A stretch of 32,000 bases of DNA from Acaryochloris marina S15 (GCF_018336915.1 NZ_CP064923.1:4920001-4952000); one strand, 5' to 3'; positions 6,429 through 21,637 are shown, numbered from the stretch's first letter. The notes: a model not told the origin generated them from the sequence alone. Numbers and translations: made by a program.

Positions 6429-6518
6429 AGAATTTCCGTCAATGAGTACTACTAGCTTCAGTTTACCGCCCGAATCTGTCAGTATGAGGGATGAATTGCC
6501 GAATGAGGGATTGAGCCG

Positions 6519-6923
6519 ATGCGGTTAGAGTTTGTGCCAGTGGAAGAGTTTTACTTTGCGATTACGCTCTGTGTGCGGGTGCTGACGGAGATTGAGAATC
6601 CTGAATTGGTGGCTCAAATGCAGGAGAAGTTGGCGACCACGTTGGGACAGTCTTCGACGGTGGCATCGGCTCAGCAGAACAGTTTTAATTATGTATTCAG
6701 GGTGTATGAGGTGGATTGTACCCCGGCGGAGGAGTTGATTGTTTCAATTTCGGATTGGGGAGAGGCACTGCGGTTGAATAGTGATTTTGGCTGGATGTTG
6801 GATGAGAATCGCAAGCCTAAGCGGACGGAGAAGTTTGGCCAGCGGGATGAGTTTTTGCAGCAGTTGAAGGCTAAGTTGCAAGAGGAGTTTCAGGTCATAT
6901 TAAATGAGCCGACTCCAACCTAG
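6519..6923 (+). CDS. Hypothetical protein (134 aa), probably co-transcribed with the Roco gene
   Basis: ATG preceded by GAGGGA. The stop lies 13 nt before the Roco ATG. No motif recognised. Confidence 0.55.
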   Translation: MRLEFVPVEEFYFAITLCVRVLTEIENPELVAQMQEKLATTLGQSSTVASAQQNSFNYVFRVYEVDCTPAEELIVSISDWGEALRLNSDFGWMLDENRKPKRTEKFGQRDEFLQQLKAKLQEEFQVILNEPTPT

Positions 6924-6936
6924 AACAGAGTAAGTT

Positions 6937-9900
6937 ATGGAGCCTTTTTGCATGGACTCGGTAACACTGATGTGCCAAATTGAGCAAGCTAAGCAAACTG
7001 GTGAGCTATACCTCAACAATAAGCAACTGACGCATGTGCCGCCAGAATTGACACAACTCAAAAACTTAACTCTCCTATCTCTCAGCGATAACAATCTGAC
7101 GAGTGTGCCACCAGAATTGGCACAACTTAAAAACTTGACAGCGCTAGATCTAAGTAAGAATCAACTGACGCATTTTCCACCAGAATTAGAACAACTCAAA
7201 AACTTAACTCTGCTGTACTTGAGCGATAACCAGCTTACAAGTTTGCCTGCAGAATTGGCACAACTACAAAACCTAAAGGAGCTAGACCTCCGCTCTAACA
7301 ATCTGGCGAGTGTGCCACCAGAATTGGCACAACTACAAAACTTGAAGGAGCTATACCTCAGTGCTAACCAGCTCACAAGTTTGCCTGCAGAATTGGCACA
7401 ACTACAAAACTTGAAGGAGCTATACCTCAGTGCTAACCAGCTCACAAGTCTGCCCGCAGAAGTGGCTCAGCTACAAAATTTAACTCTCCTATCCCTCAGT
7501 TCTAACAAGCTCACAAGTTTGCCTGCAGAATTGGCACAACTCAAAAACTTAACAGCGCTATCCCTACGCGACAACAAGCTCACAAGTGTGCCTGCAGAAT
7601 TGGCACAACTCAAAAACTTAAAAGAGCTTTACCTCCGTTCTAACCAGCTCACAAGTCTGCCCGCAGAATTGGCTCAGCTAACCAACTTGACTTTGCTATC
7701 CCTCAGCAACAACCAATTAATGCGTGTGCCCTCAGAATTAGCACAACTCAAAAACTTAGAAGAGTTACATCTCAGCGGCAACCATCTACTAGATATTCCT
7801 CTGGAATTAGCACAACTGACAAACTTGACGTGGTTATATCTCCGTTCCAACCAACTGACAAGTGTGCCTCCGGAATTAGCACAACTCAAAAACTTGAAGG
7901 AACTAGACCTCCGTGATAACCAACTATCAAATATCTCGCCAGAGATTTTGGCTCAAGGACCTGCAGCTATTTTGGGGCATTTGCGAGCACAACTCAAAGC
8001 AGGCCAACCTCAATGGATCTCTAAGCTACTCGTTGTCGGAGAGGGTGGGGTAGGCAAAACATCTCTCATACGAGCGTTACGCAACGAACTCTTTGATGTA
8101 GCTGAGTCCACAACCCACGGTATTGATATCCAAACTTTGGAACTCCAACATTGCCAAAAACCTGGAGTCACAATGCAACTCAATAGCTGGGATTTTGGCG
8201 GTCAGGAGATTTACCATGCGACCCACCAATTTTTTCTCACCAATCGCTCTTTATTTGTTGTGGTGTGGAATGCTCGTTTGGGTTTTGAACAAGGCAAGCT
8301 TAGCTACTGGCTCAAAACAATTCGAGCCAATGCTCCCGAATCCCCTATCTTGATTGTTGCCTCCCATATCGACGAGCGGTTTGCTGACCTACCTTTTAGT
8401 GAATTCAAACAACAGTTTCCACAAATCGTTGGTCAATATACCATCAGCAATAAAGATGGACAAGGCATTCCAGAACTTCGCCAGGCTATCACCAATGCAG
8501 CAGCAGACCTCCCTCTAATGGGTGAAATCTGGCCTGAAAATTGGCTGCAAGCTGCTACTGTAATTCGCAATTTACCGAAGGATCAAAAATGTATCTCTCC
8601 CCATCAGCTTTGGCAACGAATGACTGAGAAACATGTCACGCAAGAGCATCACGCCATACTGGCCCAATGGCTGCATGAGTTAGGTGACATCCTTTTCTTT
8701 GTAGATAGCGAAGACCTCAATGACTTAGTGATCCTCAAGCCCCAATGGGTAACTGAGTACATCAGCAAGGTCTTAGAAGCAGAGGGTGTCATTAACAATC
8801 AAGGTATCTTTACCCGCCAGTGCATGGATCAAATTTGGTCCGATCTAGAGTTGTCTTTGCACATCCATTTTCTCCGCCTCATGGAGCGGTTTGATCTGTC
8901 TTATCGCACCCTTGAAAATAAAGACATTAGCTTAGTTGTAGAGCGCCTTGCCTTTGAGCCTTCTGCCTACCAAGAACTATGGGAAAAACCCACCCAAACA
9001 GAACCCTGCAAGCAACTCTCCATGAAGTTTCAACTCAGTGAGATCTTGCCCGGTATTCCCACTTGGTTTATTGCCCGTCAGCATCGCTTCACAACCGGGA
9101 ACCACTGGCGCACAGGTGTTCTACTAGCTGATAGCCCGGCACACAAGCACTTGGGCTTAGTCAAAATTGGCCGCGATCCTTCTACCAACGTGGAATTTTT
9201 AGAGCTAACGGTGCGTGGTCCCATGCCCCACAATTTCTTTGACCTCCTCAAAGAAGGTATAGAAGTCACCCTTAACCGCTATCCTGGCCTCAAAGTAACC
9301 CGATTGATTCCCTGCCCAGATCCTAACCAAGAACCTTGCTTCCACGAGTTTGACTATGCCAACCTGATTAAGCGCCTTGAGCGCAAGCAGCCCAAAAATC
9401 ATATTGAATGCCCCAACTGCCTAGAAAATATCTACGTCCCCCAACTGCTCTTTGGTCTCCACCCCACCACCGAAGCCGCAGTCTTCCGGAAAATTGACGA
9501 ACTCAACCAAACCACTCAAGCAGGTTTTTCCGACATGCAATCGGGCTTTTCCGAATTGCGCGAACTCCTCCAGCGCGAATTCCTCCGCCAATTTCGCCGC
9601 GACCAACAATTCCCCGAATCCCAATGCCCTAACGTCTTCGCTTTACGTCCTGATGATCGGGGTATGTGGACCAAAGATCTTGATCAAACCCGCATCAACC
9701 TCCAGCTCTACTGCCAAGCTCCTGGTCAGTGGCATCCCACCAATACTCCCGAACAACCCAAAAACGGTCTATACACCATTGATGTTCCTAAAAAGTGGTT
9801 ACAAGCAATGGCCCCCCATATGCGACGGCTAGTGAAAGTCTTTAAATATGCGTCTCCCTTAGTCAGTCCCGTCCTAGGGAAAACCCTTCCCGATATTGCC

Positions 9901-10200
9901 GAAGCCGTCAAAGCGGATGTGGGGTTAATGAATGCCTTAGTCACCAAACTCCCAGACATTATGGACTCGCCAGAATTCCGCTGGCAGGATGATCGGCACG
10001 AAGACGAGATTGAACGACTATCGGGTTCAGCCCTTCGCTCCCTCCGCCATTTCCTAGACGAAAAAGATCCTCAGCAACATTGGGGCGGCTTAAAACGTAT
10101 CCTCACCCCAGAAGGCGATTACCTCTGGCTTTGCGAGAAACATGCTCGGGAATATGCATCCACCTACAGCGAAGATTATCCAGAGCAGCGCGAACAGTGA
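6937..10200 (+). CDS. Roco-family protein: 14 leucine-rich repeats + Roc GTPase + COR, with a Cys4 motif and an unassigned ~260-aa C-terminal domain
   Basis: 14 x 23-aa LRRs (LxLsxNqLTSlPxELAQLkNLxx). P-loop GEGGVGKT (8038-8061). Switch II WDFGGQE (from 8188). SHID in place of NKxD. COR-like ILKPQWVTEYISKVL. CX7C-X23-CX2C at 9313-9420. The start could instead be the ATG at 6952. Confidence 0.9.
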   Translation: MEPFCMDSVTLMCQIEQAKQTGELYLNNKQLTHVPPELTQLKNLTLLSLSDNNLTSVPPELAQLKNLTALDLSKNQLTHFPPELEQLKNLTLLYLSDNQLTSLPAELAQLQNLKELDLRSNNLASVPPELAQLQNLKELYLSANQLTSLPAELAQLQNLKELYLSANQLTSLPAEVAQLQNLTLLSLSSNKLTSLPAELAQLKNLTALSLRDNKLTSVPAELAQLKNLKELYLRSNQLTSLPAELAQLTNLTLLSLSNNQLMRVPSELAQLKNLEELHLSGNHLLDIPLELAQLTNLTWLYLRSNQLTSVPPELAQLKNLKELDLRDNQLSNISPEILAQGPAAILGHLRAQLKAGQPQWISKLLVVGEGGVGKTSLIRALRNELFDVAESTTHGIDIQTLELQHCQKPGVTMQLNSWDFGGQEIYHATHQFFLTNRSLFVVVWNARLGFEQGKLSYWLKTIRANAPESPILIVASHIDERFADLPFSEFKQQFPQIVGQYTISNKDGQGIPELRQAITNAAADLPLMGEIWPENWLQAATVIRNLPKDQKCISPHQLWQRMTEKHVTQEHHAILAQWLHELGDILFFVDSEDLNDLVILKPQWVTEYISKVLEAEGVINNQGIFTRQCMDQIWSDLELSLHIHFLRLMERFDLSYRTLENKDISLVVERLAFEPSAYQELWEKPTQTEPCKQLSMKFQLSEILPGIPTWFIARQHRFTTGNHWRTGVLLADSPAHKHLGLVKIGRDPSTNVEFLELTVRGPMPHNFFDLLKEGIEVTLNRYPGLKVTRLIPCPDPNQEPCFHEFDYANLIKRLERKQPKNHIECPNCLENIYVPQLLFGLHPTTEAAVFRKIDELNQTTQAGFSDMQSGFSELRELLQREFLRQFRRDQQFPESQCPNVFALRPDDRGMWTKDLDQTRINLQLYCQAPGQWHPTNTPEQPKNGLYTIDVPKKWLQAMAPHMRRLVKVFKYASPLVSPVLGKTLPDIAEAVKADVGLMNALVTKLPDIMDSPEFRWQDDRHEDEIERLSGSALRSLRHFLDEKDPQQHWGGLKRILTPEGDYLWLCEKHAREYASTYSEDYPEQREQ
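7006..7971 (+). repeat. Tandem 69-bp coding repeats (LRR array) inside the Roco gene
   Basis: 14 in-frame 69-bp units. Units 7321-7389 and 7390-7458 are identical at 67 of 69 positions. Confidence 0.9.
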
Positions 10201-10709: not shown

Positions 10710-12014
10710 ATGGCAGTCAAAACCAAAACAAACATCACCCTCACCGAGCATCAACAGACTGCCCTGGACCAGCTCCATGCTTTTTTGGATAGTCCAGAAC
10801 GGCTGTTTGTCCTAGAAGGATATGCAGGCACAGGCAAAACCACCCTATTGCAAGCCTTCGTCTCTCAGCTAAAAGAGCGGGGAGACCGTCGAGACATTGT
10901 TTTTAGTGCCTTTACCAACAAAGCCACTAAAGTTCTAAACCAAATGGTGTCTTCTTGGGGATTGAGCGTCGAATGCCTCACCTGCTGTCAGCTTCTAGGT
11001 CTACGCCCACAGATCAATCCCGAGACAGGGGAACAAGATTTCGTCCTCGATTCAAACGAAGAAAGCTCCTTTGGAAAATTTGCCTTAGTAGTCGTTGACG
11101 AATGCTCCATGGTCAACCGCAACCTGTGGGAGCTATTGCAAACGGAACTATACGCTTTTCACCTCACCACCCAGTTATTATTCGTGGGGGACTCCGCCCA
11201 GCTGCCTCCCATTAATGAACCCACATCCCAAACCTTCCTGGAGATTCCCAACAAAGCTCAGCTGACGGAAGTCATGCGTTATGGCAACTCCATCGGAGTC
11301 TTGGCAGAATCGGTGCGCTGTCATTTAGACACCTACAAACTCCCTACCTTCCATACGGATCTCAATGAAGATAAAACCGAAGGCACCGTAATCCTCCGAC
11401 AAACTGACTGGACCCAACAGCTCCTCCGAGCCTTTACCAGTGAAAAAGGCCAGGAAGATTCTGATTATGTCCGAGCCTTGGCCTATACCAACAAACGGGT
11501 CGCCCATCTCAATCAGCAAATTCGTAACGCTATCTTTGGCAAAGAGGCTTGCCGCTTTGTCCCCGGCGAACGACTAATTGCCACGGGTCCTGTGTTTCGG
11601 CGTAAGGATGAAATCGTCATGCAAACCTCCTCCGAATGCTGGGTGGAGGATGCCTATGAGGACAGCTCCTCTGGTTGGCAGGTCTGGCGACTATTTGTGG
11701 TCACCGATGCCAACTTTGATGTCGAGGTCACCGTTCTGCATGAGTCAGAACATCAACGATTTCAAAAAGAACTCAAACGCCTAGCAGACGGCAAACAATG
11801 GCAAGATTTCTGGATCCTCAAGCAACAACGATTTGCCAACCTAAACTATAGCTACGCCTTAACCGTCCATAAGTCTCAAGGCTCTACCTTTCAGAATGTC
11901 TTCGTTGACCTCCCCAACCTAATGCGCAACAGCAATATTCGCGAACGCAACCAGCTACTTTATGTCGCCGTCACCCGATCAGCCAAAAGGCTGTTTGTAT
12001 GCAAAGCCCGCTAA
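10710..12014 (+). CDS. SF1B ATP-dependent DNA helicase, RecD/Dda-like
   Basis: Walker A GYAGTGKTTLL. Walker B VVVDECSMV. C-terminal YALTVHKSQGSTF...LLYVAVTRSAKRLFV. At 434 aa it has the size and layout of Dda-type helicases. Confidence 0.85.
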   Translation: MAVKTKTNITLTEHQQTALDQLHAFLDSPERLFVLEGYAGTGKTTLLQAFVSQLKERGDRRDIVFSAFTNKATKVLNQMVSSWGLSVECLTCCQLLGLRPQINPETGEQDFVLDSNEESSFGKFALVVVDECSMVNRNLWELLQTELYAFHLTTQLLFVGDSAQLPPINEPTSQTFLEIPNKAQLTEVMRYGNSIGVLAESVRCHLDTYKLPTFHTDLNEDKTEGTVILRQTDWTQQLLRAFTSEKGQEDSDYVRALAYTNKRVAHLNQQIRNAIFGKEACRFVPGERLIATGPVFRRKDEIVMQTSSECWVEDAYEDSSSGWQVWRLFVVTDANFDVEVTVLHESEHQRFQKELKRLADGKQWQDFWILKQQRFANLNYSYALTVHKSQGSTFQNVFVDLPNLMRNSNIRERNQLLYVAVTRSAKRLFVCKAR

Positions 12015-12402: not shown

Positions 12403-15400
12403 TTAAAAAGCAACAACAGGGCTAGCGTAATAGAAAGAAGAATCAGCCAAAGAAAGCTGAGAAGCGCCAGAAATTGTTGCAATTAACTCATCAGAACCAC
12501 CCACTTGACCATCTTGGTTGGTATCTAGATAAAGATTTGCGCCTTGAGCGGTAGATCCTAATACATAGTCAGCAGCAGATCCGGCGAGCTGAATCTTGTC
12601 TTCTTGGGCATTGAAGTCCGTAATCATGGCAAAGTCATTTGTACCTGCCAGTAGGTCGTCGCCATCGTTATAGAAGGCAACTGCATTACCGAGAATAAAG
12701 TGGTCTTCACCAGCACCCCCTGTAAGCCGATCTACAGATCCTTGGCCAAAGCCAGCGTTGGGATCGACACCGACTAAAATATCGTTACCCGCTCCACCGA
12801 TGAGGGTGTCATTGCCAAAGCCACCTTCTAAGATGTCATCGCCTTGGTTGCCGGATAGGCGGTCGTTTCCATTGTTGCCCAAGACAATATCGTTGCCTTC
12901 GCCACCAAACAACACGTCATGACGAATTGCAGAGACGGATTCAAATACAGTGACATCATCAAGATAACCACCTAGACTGTCATCCTTACCTGCTGCTCTA
13001 AATTCTAGAGCAGTCGTCCCGCCTTCACCCGCTTCAACTGTGTAGGTATAGGTTTTCCAGTCTTCAGTCTTGCTAACTCCAGTGATGGTGTCTAGAAGCT
13101 CTCCATTCCAGTAGACTTCAACAGGGTTACTGGTTTCAGCCACACCCGGACGAGGAGTGTAAGCAAAGGAGATTTCGTAGGTTTTTCCGGCTTCAGTGTC
13201 TAAGTTTTGCATCATGCCACTGTTGTCATGACTGTCTAGCTCAATTCGAGCTTTGCCATCATCAGCCTTGCCAAACTGCTGAACTTCAATTCCTTTGCCT
13301 TGAGTGGTTGTCCAGCCCTCAACGGAGCCAAACACACCCCAGTTACGATTGCCGAGCTGGTTCTCTTCAAAGCTACCGTTAGCGACTAAGTTGCGAGGTG
13401 CAATAATATCTTCTGCACCACCGTCAATAATGTCGTTGCCGGTGCCACCGTAAATTGTGTCGTTGCCCGTGCCACCGTTGAGGATGTCATGGCCCGCATC
13501 ACCATACATGCGGTCTGCACCTTCGTTGCCGACAATAATATCTTCGCCTTCGCCACCGTACAGCTTATCTTTACCCGCACCACCGAGGACAACATCGTTG
13601 CCCGTGCCACCGTAGATTAAGTCGCGGCCTTCGTCTCCACTTAAAACATCATGACCCGCTTCACCGTAGAGGCTATCGTTGCCTGTCCCACCAGACATCC
13701 AATAGTCGTCGCCGGCACCACCCACTAACTTGTCACGGCCTGCCTCGCCTTCAAGGATATCGTGACCGTCTTGGCCGAGGAGCGTATCATTACCTGCGCC
13801 ACCTTTGAGGACATCATGGCCTGCACCACCATCTACAAAATCGCGTCCTGCGCCACCTTCAGCATAGTCTTCGCCTGCGCCAGCATATAAGGTGTCACGA
13901 CCTTCATCGCCGAAGAGGGCGTCGTTGTCGAGGCCACCTTCAATATAGTCACGGCCCTTACCGCCACTTAAGACATCATGACCGGCTTCACCGTAAAGAC
14001 TATCGTTGCCTGTCCCACCAGACATCCAGTAGTCATCGCCAGCTCCACCCATCAATTCGTCGTGGCCTGCTTCACCTTCTAATACATCATTTCCGTCTTG
14101 GCCGAGCAGGGTGTCATTACCTGTGCCACCTTTGAGGACATCATGACCGGCTCCACCATCGATCAGGTCGCTGCCTTTGCCGCCTTCTGCATAATCGTCA
14201 CCTTCTCCAGCGAATAGGGTGTCTTTACCCTCATCACCGAAGAGGGCGTCATTGTCGAGACCACCGTCCAAGTAGTCATGGCCCTTACCACCACTTAAAA
14301 CATCATGACCCGCTTCACCATACAGACTATCGTTGCCAGTACCACCAGACATCCAGTAGTCATCACCGGCACCACCGATTAACTCATCATGGCCGGCTTC
14401 ACCTTCAATAATGTCATGACCGTCTTGACCCAGAAGAGTGTCATTGCCACTGCCACCTTTAATGTGGTCATGGCCTGCTCCACCATCGACAAGATCACTG
14501 CCCTTGCCGCCTTCAGCATAATCGTCACCTTCGCCTGCAAATAGGGTGTCTTTGCCTTCATCTCCAAAAAGTGCGTCATTATCAAGGCCACCTTCAAGGT
14601 AGTCATGGCCTTTGCCACCACTTAAGACATCATGACCGGCTTCACCGTAAAGACTATCGTTACCTGTCCCACCGGTCATCCAATAGTCATCACCAGCACC
14701 ACCCATCAATTCGTCATGGCCTGCTTCACCTTCTAGAATGTCGTGACCGTCTTGACCCAAAAGGGTGTCATTGCCGCTGCCACCTTTGATGTGATCATGG
14801 CCTGCACCGCCATCGACTAAGTCGCGACCAGTGCCACCATCTGCATAATCTTCACCTTCACCACCAAGAAGGACATCATGCCCTTGGTTCCCCTGGAGAT
14901 TGTCATTATCAGCGCCCCCGGCGAGATAGTCATTCCCTTTTCCACCCGTTAGGAAGTCATTACCAGCTTCTCCATAGAGGCTGTCATTCCCTTTTCCACC
15001 AGAGACAAAGTAGTCGTCACCCGCGCCGCCAATGAGTTTGTCATGGCCCACTTCACCTTCGATCACATCATGGCCGTCTTGCCCTAGAAGGGTATCGCTA
15101 CCGCTGCCGCCTTTGATATGGTCATGGCCTGCACCGCCGTCTACCAAATCGTTGCCAGTACCGCCGTCTGCATAGTCTTCGCCTTCTCCTGCAAATAGGG
15201 TATCTTTACCTTCATTCCCGGATAGATTATCGTTGCCAGTGCCGCCTTCGATATAGTCGTTGCCGGTGCCACCGGTCAGGTAGTCTTCACCGGCTTCTCC
15301 GTATAAGCTATCGTTGCCAGCACCACCGGAAACCCAATAGTCATTGCCTGCACCACCGATTAACTCGTCATTTCCACCTTCACCATCGATGATGTCGTGA

Positions 15401-15966
15401 CCATCTTGACCGAGGAGGGTATCGTTACCACTGCCACCCTTAATGTGGTCATGGCCGGCCCCACCGTCTACGAGGTCATGGCCTTGGCCGCCGTTGGCAT
15501 AGTCTTCATTATCGCCACCATAGAGGCTATCGTTCCCCTGGTCACCACTGAGATTATCGTTATCTGCACCGCCTGCGAGGTAGTCATGGCCAGTGCCACC
15601 GCTCATAACATCGCTATTCCCTTCACCGTAGAGGCTGTCGTTGCCTGCCCCACCGGACATCCAGTAATCGTCGCCAGCGCCACCGACTAGTTTGTCATTC
15701 CCGGCTCCGCCTTCGAGGATATCGTGGCCGTCTTGACCAAGAAGCGTATCGTGTCCACTGCCGCCTTTAATGTGGTCATGGTTGGCACCACCGTCTACTA
15801 AGTCATTGCCTTGACCGCCATCTGCAAAGTCTTCACCTTGACCAGCAAGTAGGGTGTCATCCCCTTTTTCACCGACCAGATTATCGTTACCAAGGTCTCC
15901 TAGAATCATGTCTTCTTCTAAGGAGCCGACTAATAAATCGTCATTCTCAGTTCCGAATACCTGCAT
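12403..15966 (-). CDS. Large RTX-type (hemolysin-type Ca-binding nonapeptide) repeat protein with an embedded beta-sandwich-like domain
   Basis: 1187 aa, dominated by GGxGxDxLx nonapeptides. No N-terminal signal peptide. Acidic, repeat-poor C-terminus, consistent with a type I secretion substrate. Confidence 0.9.
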   Translation of the reverse strand: MQVFGTENDDLLVGSLEEDMILGDLGNDNLVGEKGDDTLLAGQGEDFADGGQGNDLVDGGANHDHIKGGSGHDTLLGQDGHDILEGGAGNDKLVGGAGDDYWMSGGAGNDSLYGEGNSDVMSGGTGHDYLAGGADNDNLSGDQGNDSLYGGDNEDYANGGQGHDLVDGGAGHDHIKGGSGNDTLLGQDGHDIIDGEGGNDELIGGAGNDYWVSGGAGNDSLYGEAGEDYLTGGTGNDYIEGGTGNDNLSGNEGKDTLFAGEGEDYADGGTGNDLVDGGAGHDHIKGGSGSDTLLGQDGHDVIEGEVGHDKLIGGAGDDYFVSGGKGNDSLYGEAGNDFLTGGKGNDYLAGGADNDNLQGNQGHDVLLGGEGEDYADGGTGRDLVDGGAGHDHIKGGSGNDTLLGQDGHDILEGEAGHDELMGGAGDDYWMTGGTGNDSLYGEAGHDVLSGGKGHDYLEGGLDNDALFGDEGKDTLFAGEGDDYAEGGKGSDLVDGGAGHDHIKGGSGNDTLLGQDGHDIIEGEAGHDELIGGAGDDYWMSGGTGNDSLYGEAGHDVLSGGKGHDYLDGGLDNDALFGDEGKDTLFAGEGDDYAEGGKGSDLIDGGAGHDVLKGGTGNDTLLGQDGNDVLEGEAGHDELMGGAGDDYWMSGGTGNDSLYGEAGHDVLSGGKGRDYIEGGLDNDALFGDEGRDTLYAGAGEDYAEGGAGRDFVDGGAGHDVLKGGAGNDTLLGQDGHDILEGEAGRDKLVGGAGDDYWMSGGTGNDSLYGEAGHDVLSGDEGRDLIYGGTGNDVVLGGAGKDKLYGGEGEDIIVGNEGADRMYGDAGHDILNGGTGNDTIYGGTGNDIIDGGAEDIIAPRNLVANGSFEENQLGNRNWGVFGSVEGWTTTQGKGIEVQQFGKADDGKARIELDSHDNSGMMQNLDTEAGKTYEISFAYTPRPGVAETSNPVEVYWNGELLDTITGVSKTEDWKTYTYTVEAGEGGTTALEFRAAGKDDSLGGYLDDVTVFESVSAIRHDVLFGGEGNDIVLGNNGNDRLSGNQGDDILEGGFGNDTLIGGAGNDILVGVDPNAGFGQGSVDRLTGGAGEDHFILGNAVAFYNDGDDLLAGTNDFAMITDFNAQEDKIQLAGSAADYVLGSTAQGANLYLDTNQDGQVGGSDELIATISGASQLSLADSSFYYASPVVAF
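13480..15820 (-). repeat. About 7 tandem 327-bp (109-aa, 12-nonapeptide) super-repeats within the RTX gene
   Basis: The marker G(A/T)CATCCA(A/G)T recurs at 13694, 14021, 14348 and 14675, exactly 327 bp apart. The protein motif GGAGHD(H/V)(I/L)KGG(S/T/A)G recurs 7 times. The outer boundaries are approximate. Confidence 0.85.
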
Positions 15967-16249: not shown

Positions 16250-17071
16250 ATGGGGGGCAAGAGAAAAAAAACTTGGCGACGACGCGTTTTCGAAATCTTA
16301 GAAGTGGCCGATGCCGGTGATCGAGCTAGCCAAATCTTCGATATCAGCTTGTTGGTGCTAATTTTGGCCAACTTGGTGGTGATTACCCTAGAAACGGTGG
16401 AAGGATTAACCACACAGTATCGAAGCTATTTTGAGATCTGTGAGACCGTCAGCATTACGATCTTTACGATTGAATATCTGCTACGAATCTGGTCCTGTAC
16501 GGCCTCTCCAGACTTCAAACATCCCCTATTAGGGCGAGTTAAATTTCTATTTACACCGCTCGCGTTGATTGACTTGATGGCCCTGGCACCGTTTTATTTA
16601 CCGTTACTGATTCCCATCGACATCCGGTTTATTCGCTTTATCCGACTGCTGAGAGTTTTACGGTTATTTAAGCTCAGTCGATATTTTCAGTCGTTTCAAG
16701 TCTTAGGCAATATCCTAAAGTCAAAACGAGATGAGTTATTAGTCACCCTGATGGGGGTTTTAGGCTTACTATGGCTGGCCTCTACGTTGATGTACTTTAT
16801 TGAGCATGATGCTCAGCCTGAGGCCTTTGCCAATATTCCAGCCACCATGTGGTGGGGGGTGGCGACTCTGACCACGGTGGGATATGGAGATATCTACCCT
16901 GTAACCACCGCCGGTCGAGTGTTAGGGAGTGTGATTTCGATTTTGGGGATTGGTTTATTTGCTTTGCCAACGGGGATTTTGGCTTCTGGATTTACGGAAG
17001 AATTAGATCGGCGAAAACAATTACCTACAAATGAATCCAGCACTTGTCCACATTGTGGAAAACTTTTATAG
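16250..17071 (+). CDS. Voltage-gated (6-TM, KvAP-like) potassium channel
   Basis: S4 segment IRFIRFIRLLRVLRLFKLSRY. Pore and selectivity filter WWGVATLTTVGYGD (16871-16891). AGGTGA lies upstream of the ATG. Confidence 0.9.
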   Translation: MGGKRKKTWRRRVFEILEVADAGDRASQIFDISLLVLILANLVVITLETVEGLTTQYRSYFEICETVSITIFTIEYLLRIWSCTASPDFKHPLLGRVKFLFTPLALIDLMALAPFYLPLLIPIDIRFIRFIRLLRVLRLFKLSRYFQSFQVLGNILKSKRDELLVTLMGVLGLLWLASTLMYFIEHDAQPEAFANIPATMWWGVATLTTVGYGDIYPVTTAGRVLGSVISILGIGLFALPTGILASGFTEELDRRKQLPTNESSTCPHCGKLL

Positions 17072-17121
17072 GACCATTTTTCTCACTCTCTTCCAGATTG
17101 AGCCAGGAAACCCTAAAAAAA

Positions 17122-17445
17122 ATGACAACAGAAATTTCAGTTGAATCCATCGATGGTGTGTTGAGTGTTAGAACAGCCAATGGACCGAGGGATTATATCT
17201 TGTGGCAATGGACTGAATCGGCACCACACGACATCTATGTTGAGTTTAATAACCCAAGCCATGGTGAATACAATTCCATTGATGAATGCACTGTCATGCT
17301 GGATGGAGTGCATATTGTTACCTCAGATCAGGACCTGATTCACTTCTACTTTGATGGCATCAGCCAAGCACTATATTCAAAGTTCAGTCATGGCTTAAAA
17401 CAAATCTACGCTTTCGTACCCGATATTCTGGCAGTTCTCGATTGA
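17122..17445 (+). CDS. Hypothetical protein (107 aa)
   Basis: ORF 17044..17445 trimmed to its first ATG (17122). The TTG start at 17044 would overlap the channel gene. No motif recognised. Confidence 0.5.
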   Translation: MTTEISVESIDGVLSVRTANGPRDYILWQWTESAPHDIYVEFNNPSHGEYNSIDECTVMLDGVHIVTSDQDLIHFYFDGISQALYSKFSHGLKQIYAFVPDILAVLD

Positions 17446-17646
17446 GGGATCTTAACTGATCTGCCGATGGTCTCACCCTCTGAAAGATATGTTGAGCTGA
17501 ATCTATACATGGTTCGGACAATGTGGGTGTGCTAGCGTGGAAGCTCCGTTTGCGGGACTTGAGTGCGACTTCCGAACTCCATCTTGAAAATGGCGCAAGT
17601 CTGTCGTGCCACTACTCCCCAAGCGGGCTGATTTATATCTAAGACA

Positions 17647-19089
17647 ATGGCTTCTACCTGGACGGAACGTCAGCAACAGGTCGAACGGGAAGACCTGGTC
17701 ATGTTTATCAATGCCTGTCTGAGCTGTACGGGGCAGCGGGAATTTTATGACGAGGCCTGGGGACAGAAGCTTTCCCTCGACTTTTTGCATGACTATATTT
17801 TGGGCAACTATCGACTGCTCTATGCCCGCACCTTAGCCGCAGGGATTAATCACTTTAATCAGGGCCAAATCATTCTCAAATTACTGGCAACGGGAAAGCA
17901 AACACTCCCAGAACATCGCCAGGAAGAAGGCACTCTGATCGCTTCTACCCTAAATGCGTTGCCACCCCAGCGGGCCTGGAAAGTGCTGGAGCAAATTCGG
18001 AAACGACGGATTAATAACCGTCGAGCTAGGGCAATTGCCCGGGACTATATTGCGCAACGCCACCAGCGGCTGGATTTTGATGCAGTGAAATATCGCTCTA
18101 AGGTCAGTGGAATAGCCACTCACAATCACCTGAAACTACCGGGTGAAGTCGGGTCGTTTTTGTTTCGAGACTGGCCCCAGCAGTTTGAAACTGAGCTGTT
18201 TGAGAAATTTCGAAAAGCGTATTACAGCCAAGACGCGATCTATGCCCTGCCCTTTACGGTGGCAGAAGGGTTGGCGGCAAAACATCAGATCCCCCGTGAT
18301 CGCTTTTTAGCCCGCATCGAAGCCCAAATGACTCAGGCTGAAAAAGTGCGAATGCAGCAGAGTACGGAATGCGATCGCAACTCAAAACTCACGGTTGATC
18401 TCAAACACACCCCGATCACAAAGCTAGCTCTCTACTGCTTATCTTTGCCGATCAAGGATCGACAAGCACGACATACGGAATTGACTCAGGCTTTACAGCA
18501 ATCGGCCCAAGCAGCGCTGCATCGGGCTCCTTTACGGCTGGGAAAGGTGGCAGCAGTACTGGACTGTAGCTATTCCAGTAGCGGCTCGAATGAAAAGCGG
18601 AGACGGCCTTTGGGAGTCGCCTTAGCCATTCACTATCTGTTGCAAGCGGCATCCAATCAATATCAGGCCTTTTGGACATTACCTATCTCCGATCCGCTGT
18701 TGGTGCAGCCTCGGGGACAGACGGATCTGGCTACACCCTTGCTGGATGCCCTAGCAACCCATCCTGATGTAGTGGTGATTTTGTCCGATGGCTGGGAGAA
18801 TGATCCACCCAATGGTGCCGCAGAAGTGTTGCGGGTGTTTCGTCGTCGCCTTGATCCATCCGTTTCGATCCTGCACTGCAATCCGGTTTTCAATGCAGAT
18901 GACTTTTCTGTTCGAAACCTCAGTTCCGCAGTACCCACTGTCGGACTACGAGATGCTGAGGACTTACCAACAGTGCTGGGCTTTGCTCAATTTGCTGACG
19001 GCAAATCTTCTCTTGGGGATCTGGAACAGTATTTAAAGGTCCGGGTCCAACAGTTTCTCTCCAAATTCGATCCCAATCATGGCTCCTAA
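17647..19089 (+). CDS. vWA-domain protein with Ro60/TROVE-like architecture (helical N-terminal region + C-terminal MIDAS vWA)
   Basis: MIDAS DxSxS = D306-C-S-Y-S310 (18562-18576). vWA strand VVVILSDGWEND. The N-terminal segment LVMFINACLSCTGQREFYDE resembles the L..FL.LG..GGTFY segment I recall in bacterial Rsr. At 480 aa the length is similar to Rsr. The family call is an inference. Confidence 0.6.
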   Translation: MASTWTERQQQVEREDLVMFINACLSCTGQREFYDEAWGQKLSLDFLHDYILGNYRLLYARTLAAGINHFNQGQIILKLLATGKQTLPEHRQEEGTLIASTLNALPPQRAWKVLEQIRKRRINNRRARAIARDYIAQRHQRLDFDAVKYRSKVSGIATHNHLKLPGEVGSFLFRDWPQQFETELFEKFRKAYYSQDAIYALPFTVAEGLAAKHQIPRDRFLARIEAQMTQAEKVRMQQSTECDRNSKLTVDLKHTPITKLALYCLSLPIKDRQARHTELTQALQQSAQAALHRAPLRLGKVAAVLDCSYSSSGSNEKRRRPLGVALAIHYLLQAASNQYQAFWTLPISDPLLVQPRGQTDLATPLLDALATHPDVVVILSDGWENDPPNGAAEVLRVFRRRLDPSVSILHCNPVFNADDFSVRNLSSAVPTVGLRDAEDLPTVLGFAQFADGKSSLGDLEQYLKVRVQQFLSKFDPNHGS

Positions 19090-20254
19090 AGCGCCTCTAC
19101 TGAATACCCTTTCCCTCAAGGGGATAGAGATTGCTCCCTCCCAAGTCTGGGGAGGGATTCGGATTGTGCCGTTACTGCGCCGAAATGTTCGGGGAGATCT
19201 GCGTCTAGCCAAACGCGACTATGACGACGATCTGACAGTGGTCTCTCTCCAAGGTCAACCCTTAGCAGCTGGCCTCAAGTACACTTCCTACGTCCCCCAC
19301 GGGTTAGTACTGTCCTGGGATGAAGAGGGCCAGCCCGTTGCAGCGAAAGGCAGCCAATTAGGGACGGACGGGCAACGGTTTAAGGCCGGTCCCGTCAGTG
19401 TCAGGGTGCTATCGCGAATGGCGAAGCGGGAAGCTCGCAATCAACTCCGATTTCTCCCTCTGCATCTGGCGATGGAAGGCTTCTTGTCTCTGTTTTTCTC
19501 CGGGCCAGATATTGCTTGGAGTGAGTATTCTAAGCAAGCCCTGTCTCAAGGGTTATCGTCTCGAACCGAATGGTCGGTGTCAGGGCAGGCGATTCAAGGA
19601 CTAGCGGATGCTCTACGGGTGTTTGAAATCCACGAGCATCAGGTGGGGATGCTGCTGTTTGTATCGGAAGCGCTAGCCTCTGCCTTTATCACGCCCACAC
19701 CGGAAGATTACCGGCTGCTACACCCCAGTCTGCTGCAAGATTTCTATGGAGAACTGCTGTATCAGTACGGACTCTATGGGGGCACGGTGCCCATGCAGTC
19801 CCAGGTGGATGAGTCTAAGGTGGAGACTTTGGCGGATTTGCGGGATGCGATCGCAACCCTCAGACAAGACTGGGCCGCTTTCCAAGGGCTGATGGCCAGC
19901 GACCTCCTCCAACGGCCTGTAGAATCCAAACGCATCTATACGGCAGGTCCATTCACCTTGCAGCGGTTTATCACAGATCTCAAACTCAAATCCGAGAATC
20001 ACATTGGTGAAGCGATTGTCCGCAATGATGGACAACTAGAATACCTAAAAACCTATCGTTTATCTGCAGGTCAGGCTCGAAGGGCCTATTTACTCAGCCA
20101 GCTCGCTGCCCAGGGCTGGCACTTAGAACGAACCGCCTTATCCATGGGGGAGTTGCTAGAAAACTTTATCTATCGACTAGAAAAAGCTGGCTTTGGCTAT
20201 TTAATCAATAATCAAGTGCGTGAGCAGGCACAAAAAGCGAGGCGACGGGATTAG
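19079..20254 (+). CDS. Hypothetical protein (391 aa), translationally coupled to the vWA/TROVE-like gene
   Basis: The ATG at 19079 lies 11 nt inside the upstream gene (stop at 19087-19089). No catalytic motif recognised. Mixed beta-rich N-terminal region and helical C-terminal region ending in a basic tail. Confidence 0.65.
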   Translation: MAPKAPLLNTLSLKGIEIAPSQVWGGIRIVPLLRRNVRGDLRLAKRDYDDDLTVVSLQGQPLAAGLKYTSYVPHGLVLSWDEEGQPVAAKGSQLGTDGQRFKAGPVSVRVLSRMAKREARNQLRFLPLHLAMEGFLSLFFSGPDIAWSEYSKQALSQGLSSRTEWSVSGQAIQGLADALRVFEIHEHQVGMLLFVSEALASAFITPTPEDYRLLHPSLLQDFYGELLYQYGLYGGTVPMQSQVDESKVETLADLRDAIATLRQDWAAFQGLMASDLLQRPVESKRIYTAGPFTLQRFITDLKLKSENHIGEAIVRNDGQLEYLKTYRLSAGQARRAYLLSQLAAQGWHLERTALSMGELLENFIYRLEKAGFGYLINNQVREQAQKARRRD

Positions 20255-20271
20255 GGTAATGTCGATGATGG

Positions 20272-21552
20272 TTAAGATCCAATGGCCATTTCATTGAAGC
20301 GAAGTTGAGATCGCACATTCACCCGATGATTGGCCTGAATATAGTCAGCCACATACCGAACATCCCGAGCAATCCCTGAAAAGCGGCCTGACCCCCAAGT
20401 GTAGAGCCAAGGCAAGCCCACAAAATACAGTCCTTTCACTCCCGTCACGCCCCGATCATGACCGGGATAGCCCTTGCCATCAAACACAGGAATTTCCACC
20501 CAGGAATAGTCCATGTCATAGCCAATGGACCAAATCACGGTGCTGATATTAGCAGTTTGCAAGTTCAATGCCGTGGGTTCTGAAGCCGGCTCCCAAGCGG
20601 GGCTGTAAGGCTCATCCACTGGCGCAGCAATTTGATGTTTTTCAATATAAGCATCAATGGTGCCCTTGATGCTTTCAGCCACTGCATCGGCCTGATCCAA
20701 GTTCTCTTTCAAATTAGGCTGAAACGTTAACTGAGACCCACGAATATCTGCCAGCCTGCCGTAAAGCCGCATCCCTTCCAGGGCAAAATGACGCAAATCA
20801 ATTTCCCGCCCACCTCCGCGTCCCGTGACATAGTGGTTGGTTTTAGTTCTCACATTCTCTTTTTGGGGATGATCTTCAATGGTCAGATCGTAGTAACCCA
20901 ATTGATCGAGCCAATCCACCACATCTTTACCTCGGTATTGTCGGGGCGATCGCGGCGCACTACCGACACATAAATGCACCTGTTTTCCTGCTAGATGAAG
21001 GTCTTCGGCAATCTGACAGCCCGACTGCCCGGTGCCCACTACAATCACAGCTCCATCGGCTAAACTCTCCGGATTTTTATACTCAGAAGAATGGAGTTGG
21101 CGAACCTCTTCGGGAAGACACTGGGCTATACCAGGAATGCTAGGTCGATGATAGCCTCCAGTGGCCACCACAATTTGATCAGCCGTGAATTCCCCAATCG
21201 AGGTAGAGACTTCAAACACATCGCTAATGGGATTTTTGCGCACTCGCTGCACACTGACGCCTTCTCTAACGGGAGGATTAAAGGAACGAGCGTAGGCTTC
21301 GATATAGTCGACAATTTGGTCTTTTTGCATAAATCCGTTGGAGTCATCTCCAGAATAGGAAAATCCCGGTAGCTGACATTGCCAGTTGGGGGTAACTAAA
21401 CAAAAAGAATCCCAACGCTTGCTCCGCCAGGAATGGGCAATCTGATACTGCTCAAAGATAATGTGATCAATCTGACATTCACCTAAACAGTAACTAATGG
21501 ATAAGCCTGCTTGTCCACCGCCCACAATAATGACGGAATAATGGCTGCCCAT
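20272..21552 (-). CDS. Flavin-dependent oxidoreductase (FMO/CzcO-like), likely the MSMEG_0569-family partner of the Nit1C cluster
   Basis: ORF trimmed to the ATG at 21552 (MGSHYSVIIVGGGQAGLS). Second dinucleotide motif VIVVGTGQSGCQIAED. The longer ORF start at 21630 would run into the candidate NtcA box. Confidence 0.8.
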   Translation of the reverse strand: MGSHYSVIIVGGGQAGLSISYCLGECQIDHIIFEQYQIAHSWRSKRWDSFCLVTPNWQCQLPGFSYSGDDSNGFMQKDQIVDYIEAYARSFNPPVREGVSVQRVRKNPISDVFEVSTSIGEFTADQIVVATGGYHRPSIPGIAQCLPEEVRQLHSSEYKNPESLADGAVIVVGTGQSGCQIAEDLHLAGKQVHLCVGSAPRSPRQYRGKDVVDWLDQLGYYDLTIEDHPQKENVRTKTNHYVTGRGGGREIDLRHFALEGMRLYGRLADIRGSQLTFQPNLKENLDQADAVAESIKGTIDAYIEKHQIAAPVDEPYSPAWEPASEPTALNLQTANISTVIWSIGYDMDYSWVEIPVFDGKGYPGHDRGVTGVKGLYFVGLPWLYTWGSGRFSGIARDVRYVADYIQANHRVNVRSQLRFNEMAIGS

Positions 21553-21589
21553 ACTAGATTCCCTTTTGAACTGAGTACGTCGAAGACTA

Positions 21590-21637
21590 TTGGCACCATA
21601 AAGGGGGAATGAGGCGACAACGAGTAGCAAGAGATAC
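21590..21637 (-). promoter_or_regulatory. Candidate NtcA-activated promoter for the flavoprotein gene
   Basis: GTAGCAAGAGATAC (GTA-N8-TAC, 21624-21637). On the minus strand, 23 nt further on, lies TATGGT (TAN3T-type -10 box), about 40 nt upstream of the ATG at 21552. Confidence 0.4.

Follow-up and report, generated by a model that had tools for sequence, protein, structure and literature searches.

Two coupled genes in a 32,000-nt window of the Acaryochloris marina S15 genome (NZ_CP064923.1:4920001-4952000, the whole stretch of DNA analyzed here) raise the question of whether they encode a new kind of Ro-like RNP with a novel protein partner or a vWA-based conflict module. These were the two possibilities put forward in an earlier note made from the sequence alone. 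Its description of two coupled ORFs, of a helical N-terminus followed by a vWA domain in the first product, and of the position of a D-C-S-Y-S MIDAS motif is correct throughout (Table 1). Both ORFs begin with ATG and run in the same direction. The first ends with a TAA stop codon at 19087-19089, and the start codon of the second, at 19079, lies inside the first gene and creates an 11-nt overlap.

Table 1. Features of the locus in window coordinates
Feature	Position	Strand	Basis
Structured RNA motif, ~85 nt	17544..17628	+	covariance-model match 17534-17638
Ro60/Rsr-like protein gene, 480 aa	17647..19089	+	ORF, AlphaFold2, Foldseek, hhalign
TROVE-like helical-repeat domain, residues ~1-293	17647-18525	+	
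TROVE-like segment K148-Y149-R150-S-K152 ... H159-N-H161-L-K163	18088..18135	+	hhalign vs Ro60
vWA domain, residues ~294-480	18526-19086	+	
MIDAS D306-x-S308-x-S310	18562..18576	+	family alignment and register with Ro60
ARPP-2 family protein gene, 391 aa	19079..20254	+	Pfam PF22549

The 480-aa protein is predicted to be all-helical to approximately residue 293 and then to continue into an alpha/beta domain of the vWA type. Its AlphaFold2 model is of moderate confidence (pLDDT 77.6, pTM 0.70), and a Foldseek search of the PDB with this model places Ro60/Rsr structures at all of ranks 1-9 (E = 1.5e-6 to 1.4e-4), with the first non-Ro match following at E = 7e-3. The Ro60/Rsr matches have a probability of 1.00 and more than 500 aligned columns, at a TM score (~0.5) and RMSD (8-10 A) that, with a model of this quality, do not demonstrate a closed ring with a cavity. 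Comparison by hhalign with a Ro/Rsr profile of 120 sequences gives probabilities of 95.4% (local) and 97.3% (global) for a collinear alignment of residues 14-452 with Ro60 residues 27-525. Each half of the protein also rises above the decoys when it is scored separately. The N-terminal half scores 36.9 against TROVE (decoy maximum 20.5), and the C-terminal half scores 35.1 against the Ro vWA domain (10-20 for decoys and cross-domain controls). Sequence identity to Ro60/Rsr is ~12-15%, and the helical domain is ~70 residues shorter than that of Ro60. Judged from the model and the profile comparisons, the protein is a divergent Ro-like TROVE-vWA homolog over both domains with an intact MIDAS, as the earlier note had supposed.

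This kinship is visible only with deeper profiles and structure; the Pfam TROVE model alone is blank. PF05731 has no match to the window protein at E <= 1 and none at E <= 0.1 among 10 distant relatives, the Ro60 vWA model PF25045 gives the window protein no score, and PDB sequence searches with it return no matches. Both Pfam models are carried by canonical Rsr proteins, and the sole Pfam match of the 480-aa protein is a sub-threshold one to VWA_CoxE (E = 0.0019). The profile check for TROVE that had been recommended earlier is consequently negative with Pfam and positive with deeper profiles and structure search. Some family members are labelled 'TROVE domain-containing' in UniRef.

Conserved motifs in both domains align with Ro60. 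The D-C-S-Y-S motif occupies residues 306-310, and the remaining MIDAS residues are the T/S of G-Q-T-D (residues 357-360) and D381 of S-D-G. Among 25 family members D306, S308, S310, G357, Q358, S380 and D381 are invariant, and position 359 varies conservatively between T and S. In the alignment these vWA motifs are in register with DVSAS, GGTD and FTDNE of Ro60. Two segments pointed out in the earlier note, VVVILSDGWEND and LVMFINACLSCTGQREFYDE, begin at residues 375 and 17, respectively. Within the helical domain, K148-Y-R-S-K152 ... H161-L-K163 is aligned by hhalign with K170-Y-K-Q-R174 ... H187-L-K189 of Ro60, and the family alignment shows no variation at K148, Y149, R150, K152, H159, H161 and L162. 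The alignment makes H161 the counterpart of Ro60 H187, and the H187S substitution in Ro60 abolishes Y RNA binding (PMC11277228).

The product of the second gene, which could not be assigned to any family in the earlier note, matches the Pfam ARPP-2 family (PF22549) with E = 1.4e-115 (385.6 bits, cutoff 27). The match covers profile positions 1-278 of 278 and places the domain at residues 11-290, leaving a C-terminal region of ~100 aa with no Pfam match. PF22549 is carried by 120/120 among the relatives listed, and relatives of this protein are already named 'ARPP-2 domain-containing protein' in NCBI/UniRef. This profile match makes the partner a genuine ARPP superfamily protein; its family, ARPP-2, has a name but is uncharacterised. 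ARPP is predicted to be an enzyme acting on sugar moieties and is tied to ADP-ribose processing, and it has also been linked to HIRAN, a DNA 3'-end binder (PMC9503650). A cysteine and a glutamine are described as absolutely conserved in ARPP (PMC9503650). The glutamine is present here (Q22 and Q188 are both invariant), but the cysteine is missing. The window protein contains 0 cysteines, and the Cys-based covalent capture proposed for ARPP therefore cannot be its chemistry. High-GC members have Q-C-G where the cyanobacterial ARPP-2 proteins have Q-V-G. Across ARPP-2 and ARPP-1 partners Q22, G25, P31, P73, P127, W147, F182, E183, Q188, G190 and L254 are invariant, and the polar residues kept across phyla in ARPP-2 (Q22, H129, R162, E164, E183, H185, Q188, D210 and H215) suggest catalysis. 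The structure prediction for this protein is of low confidence (pLDDT 40.5).

A third component, missed in the earlier note, lies directly upstream of the pair. An RNA of ~85 nt ends 18 nt ahead of the ATG of the Ro-like gene and is built from a closing helix P1 (9 bp plus GGGA/UCCC, 13 bp in all), a helix P2 (8 bp) and a terminal hairpin P3 (4 bp). Internal loops follow P1, and the junctions GCGGGACU, (A)CUUCCGAA and UUCCCC are nearly invariant. Searches with nhmmer and cmsearch find the RNA in 75/81 loci. All 96 matches (68-113 bits) lie just ahead of the Ro-like gene in its own orientation, and no comparable match occurs elsewhere in the 949 kb searched. Each of the loci with the RNA has 1-3 tandem copies, with 2-3 copies in 20 loci. 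Compensatory changes are present in 16 of the 25 predicted base pairs, 95.8% of cells are paired (shuffles, 81%; slid partners, 34-47%), and 203 cells carry double changes (49 in shuffles). None of 500 shuffles reaches the observed values for pairing or covariation, and the single-sequence fold coincides with the consensus structure (z = -2.6). The upstream RNA is shown by this analysis to be a real, covarying structure. It is strongly conserved and was previously uncatalogued. Rfam has no match at E <= 10 to the element and none at E <= 1 to the region, and the Rfam Y_RNA and YrlA models in particular do not match it.

In bacteria with 70-77% GC, too, the RNA lies ahead of this gene pair. Each metagenome copy confirmed by the model (8/8) precedes a Ro-like gene, as do the copy at a locus with fused genes and a copy on a plasmid. 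No orphan copies that lack a Ro-like gene were found in the loci or metagenome contigs examined, where the metagenome scan used one exact pattern and could miss divergent orphans. The distance from the RNA to the start codon is usually 15-60 nt (median 42 nt). The spacers vary between 0 and >500 nt in length and are taken up by unrelated repeats, and no conserved sequence joins the RNA to the start codon across loci. Neither a promoter nor a terminator belonging to the RNA was detected, and no terminator-like site follows the element.

Many of these properties recall Y RNAs, which are 80-130 nt long, have a long stem formed by their 5' and 3' ends and a large internal loop, and are encoded, often as several copies, on the strand of a Ro ortholog and within 4 kb of it (PMC4201824). 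The window RNA is alike in its size, 13-bp closing helix, internal loops, same-strand position near the Ro-like gene and multiple copies. It differs in having no Rfam Y_RNA/YrlA match and no tRNA-like module (ARAGORN finds no tRNA-like domain in the window). Ro-binding sequences on the Y RNA 5' strand are GGUCCGA in animals and GNCGAA(N0-1)G in bacteria (PMC4201824). On its 5' side the window RNA has an invariant UUCCG(A)A that shares UCCGA or CGAA with these contact motifs, a resemblance of 5-6 nt only. Its place in the mRNA leader, with 18 nt separating it from the ATG, also distinguishes it from the RNAs of known Ro60/Rsr RNPs. Operon-borne Y RNAs have been described (PMC7790460).

The same place fits a leader equally well, and the RNA could be a metabolite riboswitch or another cis-acting leader to which the Ro-like protein does not bind. 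The operon would then be switched on by a small molecule, such as a nucleotide or a signal derived from NAD or ADP-ribose, and the proteins would need no RNA cofactor. Like orphan riboswitch candidates and protein-binding leaders, the window RNA has covarying helices joined by highly conserved junction nucleotides, a position in the 5' leader and, as in some riboswitch classes, tandem copies. For ARPP systems, regulation by Nudix or WYL transcription factors that sense ADPr or nucleotides has furthermore been proposed (PMC9503650). Against this view, no recognisable expression platform is found, because there is no terminator and the sequence between the RNA and the ATG is unconserved. Across phyla, the RNA precedes only this one gene family in all loci examined, whereas a riboswitch typically governs several. 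The downstream protein is, in addition, a homolog of an RNA binder whose cognate RNAs are encoded adjacent to it. A riboswitch or another unbound leader is unlikely here. The homology to a protein that binds adjacent non-coding RNAs also sets the locus apart from orphan riboswitch candidates and from protein-binding leaders, of which the autoregulatory leaders of ribosomal-protein mRNAs are an example.

An RNA-protein module is the best explanation. The locus would be a three-part module, consisting of the ~85-nt RNA, the Ro60-like TROVE-vWA protein and ARPP-2, that diverges from the Ro60/Rsr-Y RNA RNP as a variant of it and presumably has an RNA-directed function. We assign this reading a probability of about 0.5. 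The conserved RNA strongly supports the Ro-like RNP with a novel partner that had been one of the two original proposals. Known RNPs of this type, such as D. radiodurans Rsr-Yrn1-PNPase and Salmonella rsr-yrlBA-rtcBA, have the same order of a TROVE-like helical domain and a vWA domain with a MIDAS, and the window protein keeps the histidine equivalent to the Y-RNA-binding H187. A genetically linked effector is likewise common to both, although the linked partner is RtcB/RtcA or PNPase there and the candidate effector is ARPP-2 here.

In such a module the Ro-like protein would bind the upstream RNA. This RNA could be a Y-RNA-like cofactor that is excised from the transcript of the operon, as for Salmonella rsr-yrlBA-rtcBA, or it could be an autoregulatory operator in the leader of the Ro-like gene itself. 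If the helical domain forms a ring, then it might capture single-stranded RNA ends as in Ro60. ARPP-2 may be an effector in place of the PNPase or RtcB found with canonical Rsr, and it may be bound through direct protein contact that possibly involves the vWA MIDAS. It could act on the ribose or sugar-phosphate end of the captured RNA, or on an adduct of the ADP-ribose type. The module would probably work in RNA damage or in conflict between phage and host, as suggested by the other contexts of ARPP and by related pairs in huge phages that lie by tRNAs and, once, by an RNA ligase.

The co-conservation and adjacency of the two protein genes, raised earlier as a check, are borne out. The pair is conserved in 77/80 genome loci with ARPP-2 downstream on the same strand, and one metagenome contig carries the Ro-like and ARPP proteins as a single fused gene of 828 aa. 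Only the Ro-like and ARPP-2 genes form ORF clusters that recur in all loci, and the rest of the context is variable. Across phyla the RNA stays associated with both the Ro-like gene and the ARPP gene. The overlap of the two ORFs had been taken to imply stoichiometric co-expression, but neither is conserved. The 11-nt overlap is specific to Acaryochloris, the genes are 0 to ~2000 nt apart elsewhere, and in one Nostoc plasmid examined xisH/xisI genes lie between them. With such variable spacing, translational coupling is not a conserved property of the pair.

The Ro-like family is present in 440 species genomes and has 674 representatives after clustering at 50% identity. This breadth bears on whether the module could instead perform housekeeping RNA quality control under stress, as canonical Rsr does. 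The Ro-like protein and its RNA would then aid rRNA or tRNA decay or maturation during starvation or UV stress, with ARPP-2 as an adaptor rather than an enzyme and with no role in phage conflict. Conservation in cyanobacteria is wide and vertical (60-70% identity, mostly chromosomal with some plasmid occurrences), and the Ro-like sequence is highly conserved rather than fast-evolving (mean column identity of the family alignment 74%). The lack of cysteine in the window ARPP-2 points the same way, as does the action of D. radiodurans Rsr/Y RNA in structured RNA decay (PMC4201824). This role is nevertheless improbable, since the invariant polar residues of ARPP-2 suggest catalysis, related pairs occur in huge phages, phage-like contigs and plasmids, and the genomic context is variable.

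The neighbours of the pair in the window are an ion channel gene (16250-17071), a small unconserved ORF, a flavin monooxygenase gene (20272-21630, minus strand) and a gene for a PAS-GGDEF-EAL protein, within a variable neighbourhood that includes a ROCO protein and a RecD-like helicase. No RNA ligase, cyclase, kinase or phosphatase adjoins the pair in the window, much as had been noted before. RNA-repair genes, RtcB/RtcA included, are absent from the neighbourhood of the pair in the window and from the recurrent ORF clusters of the 80 loci. The same is true of ARG (ADP-ribosylglycohydrolase) and rhodanese-phosphatase genes, and macro, Nudix and WYL genes do not recur beside the pair across these loci.

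The module has its closest counterparts on the ARPP side in the systems described in PMC9503650. They share the superfamily (ARPP-2 in the window and ARPP-1 in distant pairs), and the tight two-gene plan with a nucleic-acid- or ligand-binding partner resembles HIRAN-ARPP and WYL-ARPP. A TROVE or Ro-like partner is not among the three two-gene contexts given there, and 'TROVE' is absent from the text. The window module also differs from these systems in its dedicated structured RNA and cysteine-free ARPP-2, and the ARG, rhodanese-phosphatase, Nudix and WYL genes of ARG-centred systems are not recurrent beside the Ro-like pair. These systems do include vWA proteins, predicted to be peptide-binding chaperones, in ARPP neighbourhoods (PMC9503650). 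A conflict or chaperone module without RNA binding could be imagined on this basis, in which the MIDAS binds a peptide or modified protein, the helical domain is a mere scaffold drifted from TROVE, and ARPP-2 processes a protein-linked or soluble adduct of the ADP-ribose type. Although the invariant MIDAS, the variable surroundings with ROCO and RecD-like proteins, and an EAD4-NACHT-HEAT STAND NTPase (a conflict-system protein) that adjoins the module in ~21 Nostocales loci are compatible with it, this is quite doubtful given that the helical half is collinear with TROVE through the segment with the Y-RNA-binding histidine, that a dedicated structured RNA accompanies the Ro-like gene across phyla, that no ARG, macro, Nudix or rhodanese-phosphatase gene recurs beside the pair, that PADLOC models match neither protein, and that the STAND neighbour is restricted to one lineage.

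More distant relatives extend the association of Ro-like proteins with the ARPP superfamily. Distant Ro-like subfamilies are followed by ARPP-1 within 8-20 nt at three loci (L129, L131 and L133) and in the huge phage LR756500.1. Distant members also lie beside tRNAs on phage-like contigs and in a 462-kb phage, and on one phage-like contig an RNA ligase gene (PF09414) and a YAcAr gene are nearby. At L131 the Ro-like gene is directly preceded, in its own orientation, by a tRNA-like domain closed by a 10-bp stem and by a second element with this closing stem, a further likeness to Y RNAs. TROVE proteins of jumbo phages are proposed to provide a ROT/TROVE RNP platform for RNA repair (PMC7824862). 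The distant Ro-like members beside tRNAs, and once an RNA ligase, fit such a platform, although they have no Pfam TROVE match, and pairing with ARPP-1 goes unmentioned in the passages of that study consulted.

Taken a step further, the locus could represent an undescribed class of Ro-type RNP that combines a dedicated Y-like RNA, a highly divergent TROVE-vWA ring and an ARPP enzyme and that both cyanobacteria and high-GC bacteria keep as one unit. This proposal is tentative. The protein pair is also present in huge phages, and the ring may present RNA 3' ends to ARPP for processing while the RNA gates or tethers the complex. Possible substrates are ribose-linked adducts, such as ADP-ribosylated or cyclic-phosphate ends. 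If such a class exists, then the orphan ARPP superfamily would gain an RNA substrate and Ro proteins would gain a new type of effector.

The 480-aa protein is a divergent Ro60-like TROVE-vWA homolog that lies outside curated family models. Both open reading frames described in the earlier note are present, as are its D-C-S-Y-S motif (residues 306-310) and the two peptides that it quoted. Pfam gives only a sub-threshold VWA_CoxE match to this protein and NCBIfam, PADLOC and PHROGs give none, and PDB searches with the single sequence or the family profile do not return Ro60. An AlphaFold2 model (pLDDT 77.6, pTM 0.70) consists of helices alone up to about residue 293 and is alpha/beta thereafter. 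Its nine top Foldseek matches in the PDB, each a full-length structure of Ro60 or Rsr, have E = 1.5e-6 to 1.4e-4 with probability 1.00 and >500 aligned columns; the next match has E = 7e-3. The nearest named relatives are from Acaryochloris, with 86% identity to A. marina MBIC11017, and an identical gene occurs with the same neighbors on a Logan contig. The family comprises 1324 clusters at 90% identity, or 674 representatives at 50% identity, in 440 species genomes; in an alignment of 25 cyanobacterial members, column identity averages 74%.

Profile alignments with hhalign extend over both halves of the protein. The human Ro60 sequence used here was checked against PDB 9nen_A (537 of 538 residues identical); Xenopus and Deinococcus sequences were also recovered. 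A shallow family profile aligned with single-sequence Ro60 in the vWA half only (25% probability), so matching both halves required deep profiles on both sides. A 105-sequence family profile reaches 61-79% probability against the human, Xenopus and Deinococcus sequences. Against a reference profile of these three sequences and 120 Rsr proteins, the local alignment pairs residues 14-452 with Ro60 27-525 (95.4%, E = 1.6e-8), and the global alignment reaches 97.3% (E = 5.8e-11). By domain, the helical half scores 36.9 against TROVE and the vWA half 35.1 against the Ro vWA domain, versus 10.6-20.5 for reversed decoys, ten column-shuffled decoys and cross-domain controls. The aligned hallmarks (Ro-like, then Ro60) are MFINACLSCTGQREFY and RFLCFGSEGGTYY, NNRRARAIARDY and WGRALRKAIADWY, AVKYRSK...THNHLK and the Ro60 segment K170-Y-K-Q-R174...H187-L-K189, LDCSYS and VDVSAS, GQTD and GGTD, and ILSDGWEND and VFTDNET. 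The family-invariant H161 pairs with Ro60 H187, and the H187S substitution in Ro60 causes loss of Y RNA binding (PMC11277228). Relative to Ro60, the helical domain lacks about 70 residues.

The 391-aa partner, which the earlier note could not assign to any family, matches ARPP-2 over its full length (Pfam PF22549, E = 1.4e-115), and its relatives are so named in databases. ARPP proteins are predicted enzymes in which one Cys and one Gln are absolutely conserved. They are proposed to act on sugar moieties and are found both in conflict systems with ARG and rhodanese-phosphatase and as gene pairs with HIRAN, WYL or a deacetylase (Iyer, Burroughs, Anantharaman, Aravind 2022, PMC9503650). The text of that paper does not mention a TROVE partner, and no mention of ARPP-2 or PF22549 was found in the literature searched. 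The protein in the window contains no cysteine; cyanobacterial ARPP-2 proteins have Q188-V-G where high-GC relatives have Q-C-G. Residues Q22, G25, P31, P73, P127, W147, F182, E183, Q188, G190 and L254 are invariant across ARPP-2 and ARPP-1 partners, and H129, R162, E164, H185, D210, R212 and H215 are also invariant within ARPP-2. The predicted structure of ARPP-2 has a pLDDT of only 40.5, and a PDB profile search with the protein was empty.

In 77 of 80 genome loci, the Ro-like gene is followed by a co-directional ARPP-2 gene; two of the three remaining loci are truncated by contig ends. These two genes are the sole ORF clusters that recur in all loci. A single 828-aa polypeptide joins the two proteins in one metagenome contig. 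The ATG of the ARPP-2 gene does lie 11 nt inside the Ro-like gene, as had been claimed, but spacing across genome loci varies between a 7-nt overlap and a gap of about 2 kb, so the 11-nt overlap is peculiar to Acaryochloris. Locus tags place the two genes on different contigs in Desmonostoc vinosum HA7617-LM4 (L022; P0038, P0325) and Cyanosarcina radialis HA8281-LM2 (P0012, P0295), so the pair can be unlinked with both genes retained. In Nostoc sp. UHCC 0926 plasmid pn3, xisH and xisI are inserted between the two genes; the Ro-like gene of this plasmid has no CDS entry in the PLSDB table. Gaps of ~820-1060 nt separate the pair in seven other Nostoc loci (L023, L025, L038, L043, L049, L050 and L062) and may have the same cause. 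The 100-nt spacer of an Oscillatoria contig contains a 24-nt match to the Rfam family CRISPR-DR28 (36.4 bits versus a gathering threshold of 35), which is probably a stray palindromic repeat.

In heterocystous cyanobacteria the module adjoins an EAD4-NACHT-HEAT STAND NTPase gene and a conserved 122-aa ORF, neither of which is in the window. We rejected these as core parts, since both are found in heterocystous lineages only and are not placed uniformly with respect to the RNA described below; in L066, L067 and L073 the RNA is upstream of the 122-aa ORF instead of downstream. The adjoining genes in the window encode an ion channel, a flavin monooxygenase and a PAS-GGDEF-EAL protein, which bears out the reported absence of RNA-repair neighbors. 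None of these, nor the RTX-like protein gene, co-travels with the pair in other loci. The stretch upstream with ROCO, helicase and RTX-type genes looks like a variable, possibly conflict-related neighborhood, and these genes also have no linkage to the pair in other genomes. A small upstream ORF has no match in Pfam, NCBIfam, PADLOC or PHROGs and was dropped from the module because it is unconserved even within Acaryochloris marina.

Coordinates of the module, its RNAs and neighboring features (L-numbers denote compared loci)
Feature	Location	Strand	Remarks
Ro-like gene	window 17647..19089	+	480 aa
D-C-S-Y-S motif	window 18562-18576	+	in Ro-like gene
ARPP-2 gene	window 19079..20254	+	391 aa
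RNA motif	window 17544-17628	+	~85 nt
Shared upstream block	window 17547-17624	+	~81 nt
Small upstream ORF	window 17044-17445		rejected as module part
95-aa ORF	window 17503-17790	-	overlaps RNA motif and start of Ro-like gene
ROCO protein	window 6937-10200	+	LRR-Roc-COR, 1087 aa; upstream of module
RecD/UvrD-like AAA_30 helicase	window 10710-12014	+	434 aa; upstream of module
Glycine/aspartate-rich repeat protein, RTX type	window 12403-15966	-	1187 aa; upstream of module
EAD4-NACHT-HEAT STAND NTPase	L003:1895-4801	-	~970 aa; divergent from module; similar in ~21 loci
Conserved 122-aa ORF	L003:5083-5451	+	no Pfam match; beside module; similar in ~33 loci
xisH and xisI	L127:7618-8357		Nostoc plasmid pn3
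CRISPR-DR28 match	L079:5817-5840		Ro-like/ARPP-2 spacer
Tandem RNA motif copies	L012:5578-5658, 5784-5864		two subtypes
Tandem RNA motif copies	L017:5715-5795, 5858-5938		two subtypes
Tandem elements	L131:5692-5803, 5898-5988	+	upstream of distant Ro-like gene 6001-7467
YAcAr gene	L131:810-1175		SLOG family, NAD-linked
RNA ligase gene	L131:4096-4746		PF09414
tRNA clusters	L129:8961-9566; L133:8830-9128; L134:2364-2439, 9073-9425	same as pairs

A structured RNA precedes the Ro-like gene. Clustering places 76 of 81 upstream non-coding regions in one group with a shared block, and the RNA motif is found in 75 of the 81 sources, always 5' of the Ro-like gene and on its strand. A 54-sequence alignment predicts three helices with 25 pairs, 16 of which have compensatory double changes. 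Paired cells make up 95.8% (81% in shuffles and 34-47% with slid partners), double changes occur in 203 cells (49 in shuffles), and the covariation score is 0.50 versus 0.22; none of 500 shuffles attains the observed values. The junctions GCGGGACU, CUUCCGAA and UUCCCC are near-invariant. Across 949 kb, a covariance model finds 96 matches that score 68-113 bits, each of them 5' of a Ro-like gene. Of 45 pattern matches in metagenome contigs, the model upheld eight, and the 37 without its support were set aside as chance. Seven of these eight are in DNA of 70-77% GC. The helices of the eight are rewritten by compensatory changes, with junctions retained. All eight lie directly 5' of a Ro-like gene, ARPP-2 is next in the five loci with sufficient contig, and the fusion gene has the motif immediately upstream. 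In the unlinked Desmonostoc locus the RNA remains with the Ro-like gene. No orphan copies were found in the 949 kb of genome loci or among the metagenome pattern matches, and Rfam 15 contains no family for this RNA at gathering or permissive thresholds to E <= 10.

The median distance from the end of the proximal RNA copy to the start codon is 42 nt (18 nt in the window), and longer spacers contain heptamer repeats or a small ORF. In Nostocales (e.g. L040, L022, L031 and L034), tandem heptamer-type repeats (AATTCGT, GATTTTA, TTAGGAG and GTTGATA) expand the spacer and explain most of the differences in motif-to-gene distance. The RNA is present as two or three tandem copies in 20 Nostocales loci, and these copies form two subtypes. 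The distal one reads ...CUUCCGAAC...CCUAGCUAG... and the proximal one ...CUUCCG-UU...CAAACCUAG... This linked change at two junctions may reflect an additional tertiary interaction or base pairing; alternatively, the subtypes may be RNAs with different functions, analogous to YrlA and YrlB. A DNA operator was rejected because strand-specific G-U pairs are common and the reverse strand scores only ~22-25 bits versus ~100 forward. The 95-aa minus-strand ORF is almost certainly spurious because RNA covariation there is strand-specific. Promoter and terminator scans around the motif in the window gave nothing beyond shuffle expectation.

We favor a Ro-type RNP module, with a probability of about 0.5, in which the RNA would be the cognate ligand of the Ro-like protein and ARPP-2 the effector. 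Y RNAs measure 80-130 nt and have internal loops and a long terminal stem; their genes, often in several copies, share the strand of the Ro ortholog and lie no more than 4 kb from it, and Ro contacts them through a 5'-strand GGUCCGA / GNCGAA motif (PMC4201824). The new RNA resembles them in size, architecture, position, strand and multiplicity, and it has an invariant UUCCGAA on its 5' side. Neither the Y_RNA nor the YrlA model matches it, and a tRNA-like module is absent. The leader position and conserved junctions would also suit a small-molecule riboswitch, but this is unlikely given that no recognizable expression platform was found and that, in the loci covered, the RNA is linked exclusively to one gene family. 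A vWA-based conflict or chaperone module that acts independently of RNA seems slightly less likely still, and a housekeeping Rsr-like RNA quality-control factor equally so.

Distant Ro-like subfamilies (488-549 aa) have an ARPP-1 or mixed ARPP-1/2 gene within 8-20 nt downstream. They occur on phage-like contigs (L129, L131/L132 and L133) and in a 462-kb uncultured phage (LR756500.1), so the Ro-like/ARPP partnership is old and common to both ARPP families. Two tandem elements on the same strand precede the distant Ro-like gene of L131, with fold z-scores of about -3 and near-identical 10-bp closing stems (CGAGGGAGAU/AUCUCCCUCG and CGGAGGGAAG/CUUCCCUCCG). The stem of the first is perfect and surrounds a tRNA-like cloverleaf of 73 nt, which ARAGORN reports as tRNA-Ser(GCU) although it lacks a long variable arm. 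This layout of a tRNA-like domain and a second element is like that of YrlA/YrlB in this single case. YAcAr and RNA ligase genes within 5 kb upstream of the L131 pair hint at an RNA-repair or NAD-linked setting for this branch. In the phage-like contigs and the huge phage, tRNA genes also cluster near the pairs, on their strand and at most a few hundred nucleotides away, and several are 73-74-nt "tRNA-Ser" calls, seemingly short for class II tRNAs. These could be ordinary phage tRNA clusters or tRNA-like partners.

In the favored Ro-type RNP, the RNA motif may be a Y-like cofactor or an autoregulatory operator bound by the Ro-like protein. ARPP would then act on the ribose of RNA ends or on ADP-ribose-type adducts. 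We suggest this because of the published contexts of ARPP, among them its pairing with HIRAN, a binder of DNA 3' ends, because Ro60 is known to bind RNA ends and because tRNA and RNA-ligase genes are neighbors in phage-like loci.

ARPP-2 is already named in databases, and Ro-like proteins are occasionally called "TROVE domain-containing" (a few members in UniRef). We found no description of the obligate Ro-like/ARPP pairing, the fusion, the phage ARPP-1 pairs or the RNA motif in the literature searched, or of the RNA in Rfam. The locus is best read as a putative variant of the Ro/Y-RNA-type RNP. Ro60 is a major autoantigen in humans, and what Ro-Y RNA particles do is accessible mainly through the bacterial relatives of the protein. 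To our knowledge, the only established effector links of Ro proteins are to PNPase and the RtcB/RtcA operon. The present locus suggests that a third Ro arrangement, with another effector and another RNA, is widespread. Family-model searches overlook this whole Ro-like branch, and surveys of bacteria with Ro therefore probably undercount. The RNA motif is a new cross-phylum structured RNA family missing from Rfam 15. ARPP proteins, predicted enzymes without a known substrate, are tied here to a likely RNA-binding partner, which makes the substrate question directly testable, and the Ro-like/ARPP-2 arrangement occurs in the genetically tractable Anabaena, Nostoc and Trichormus groups.
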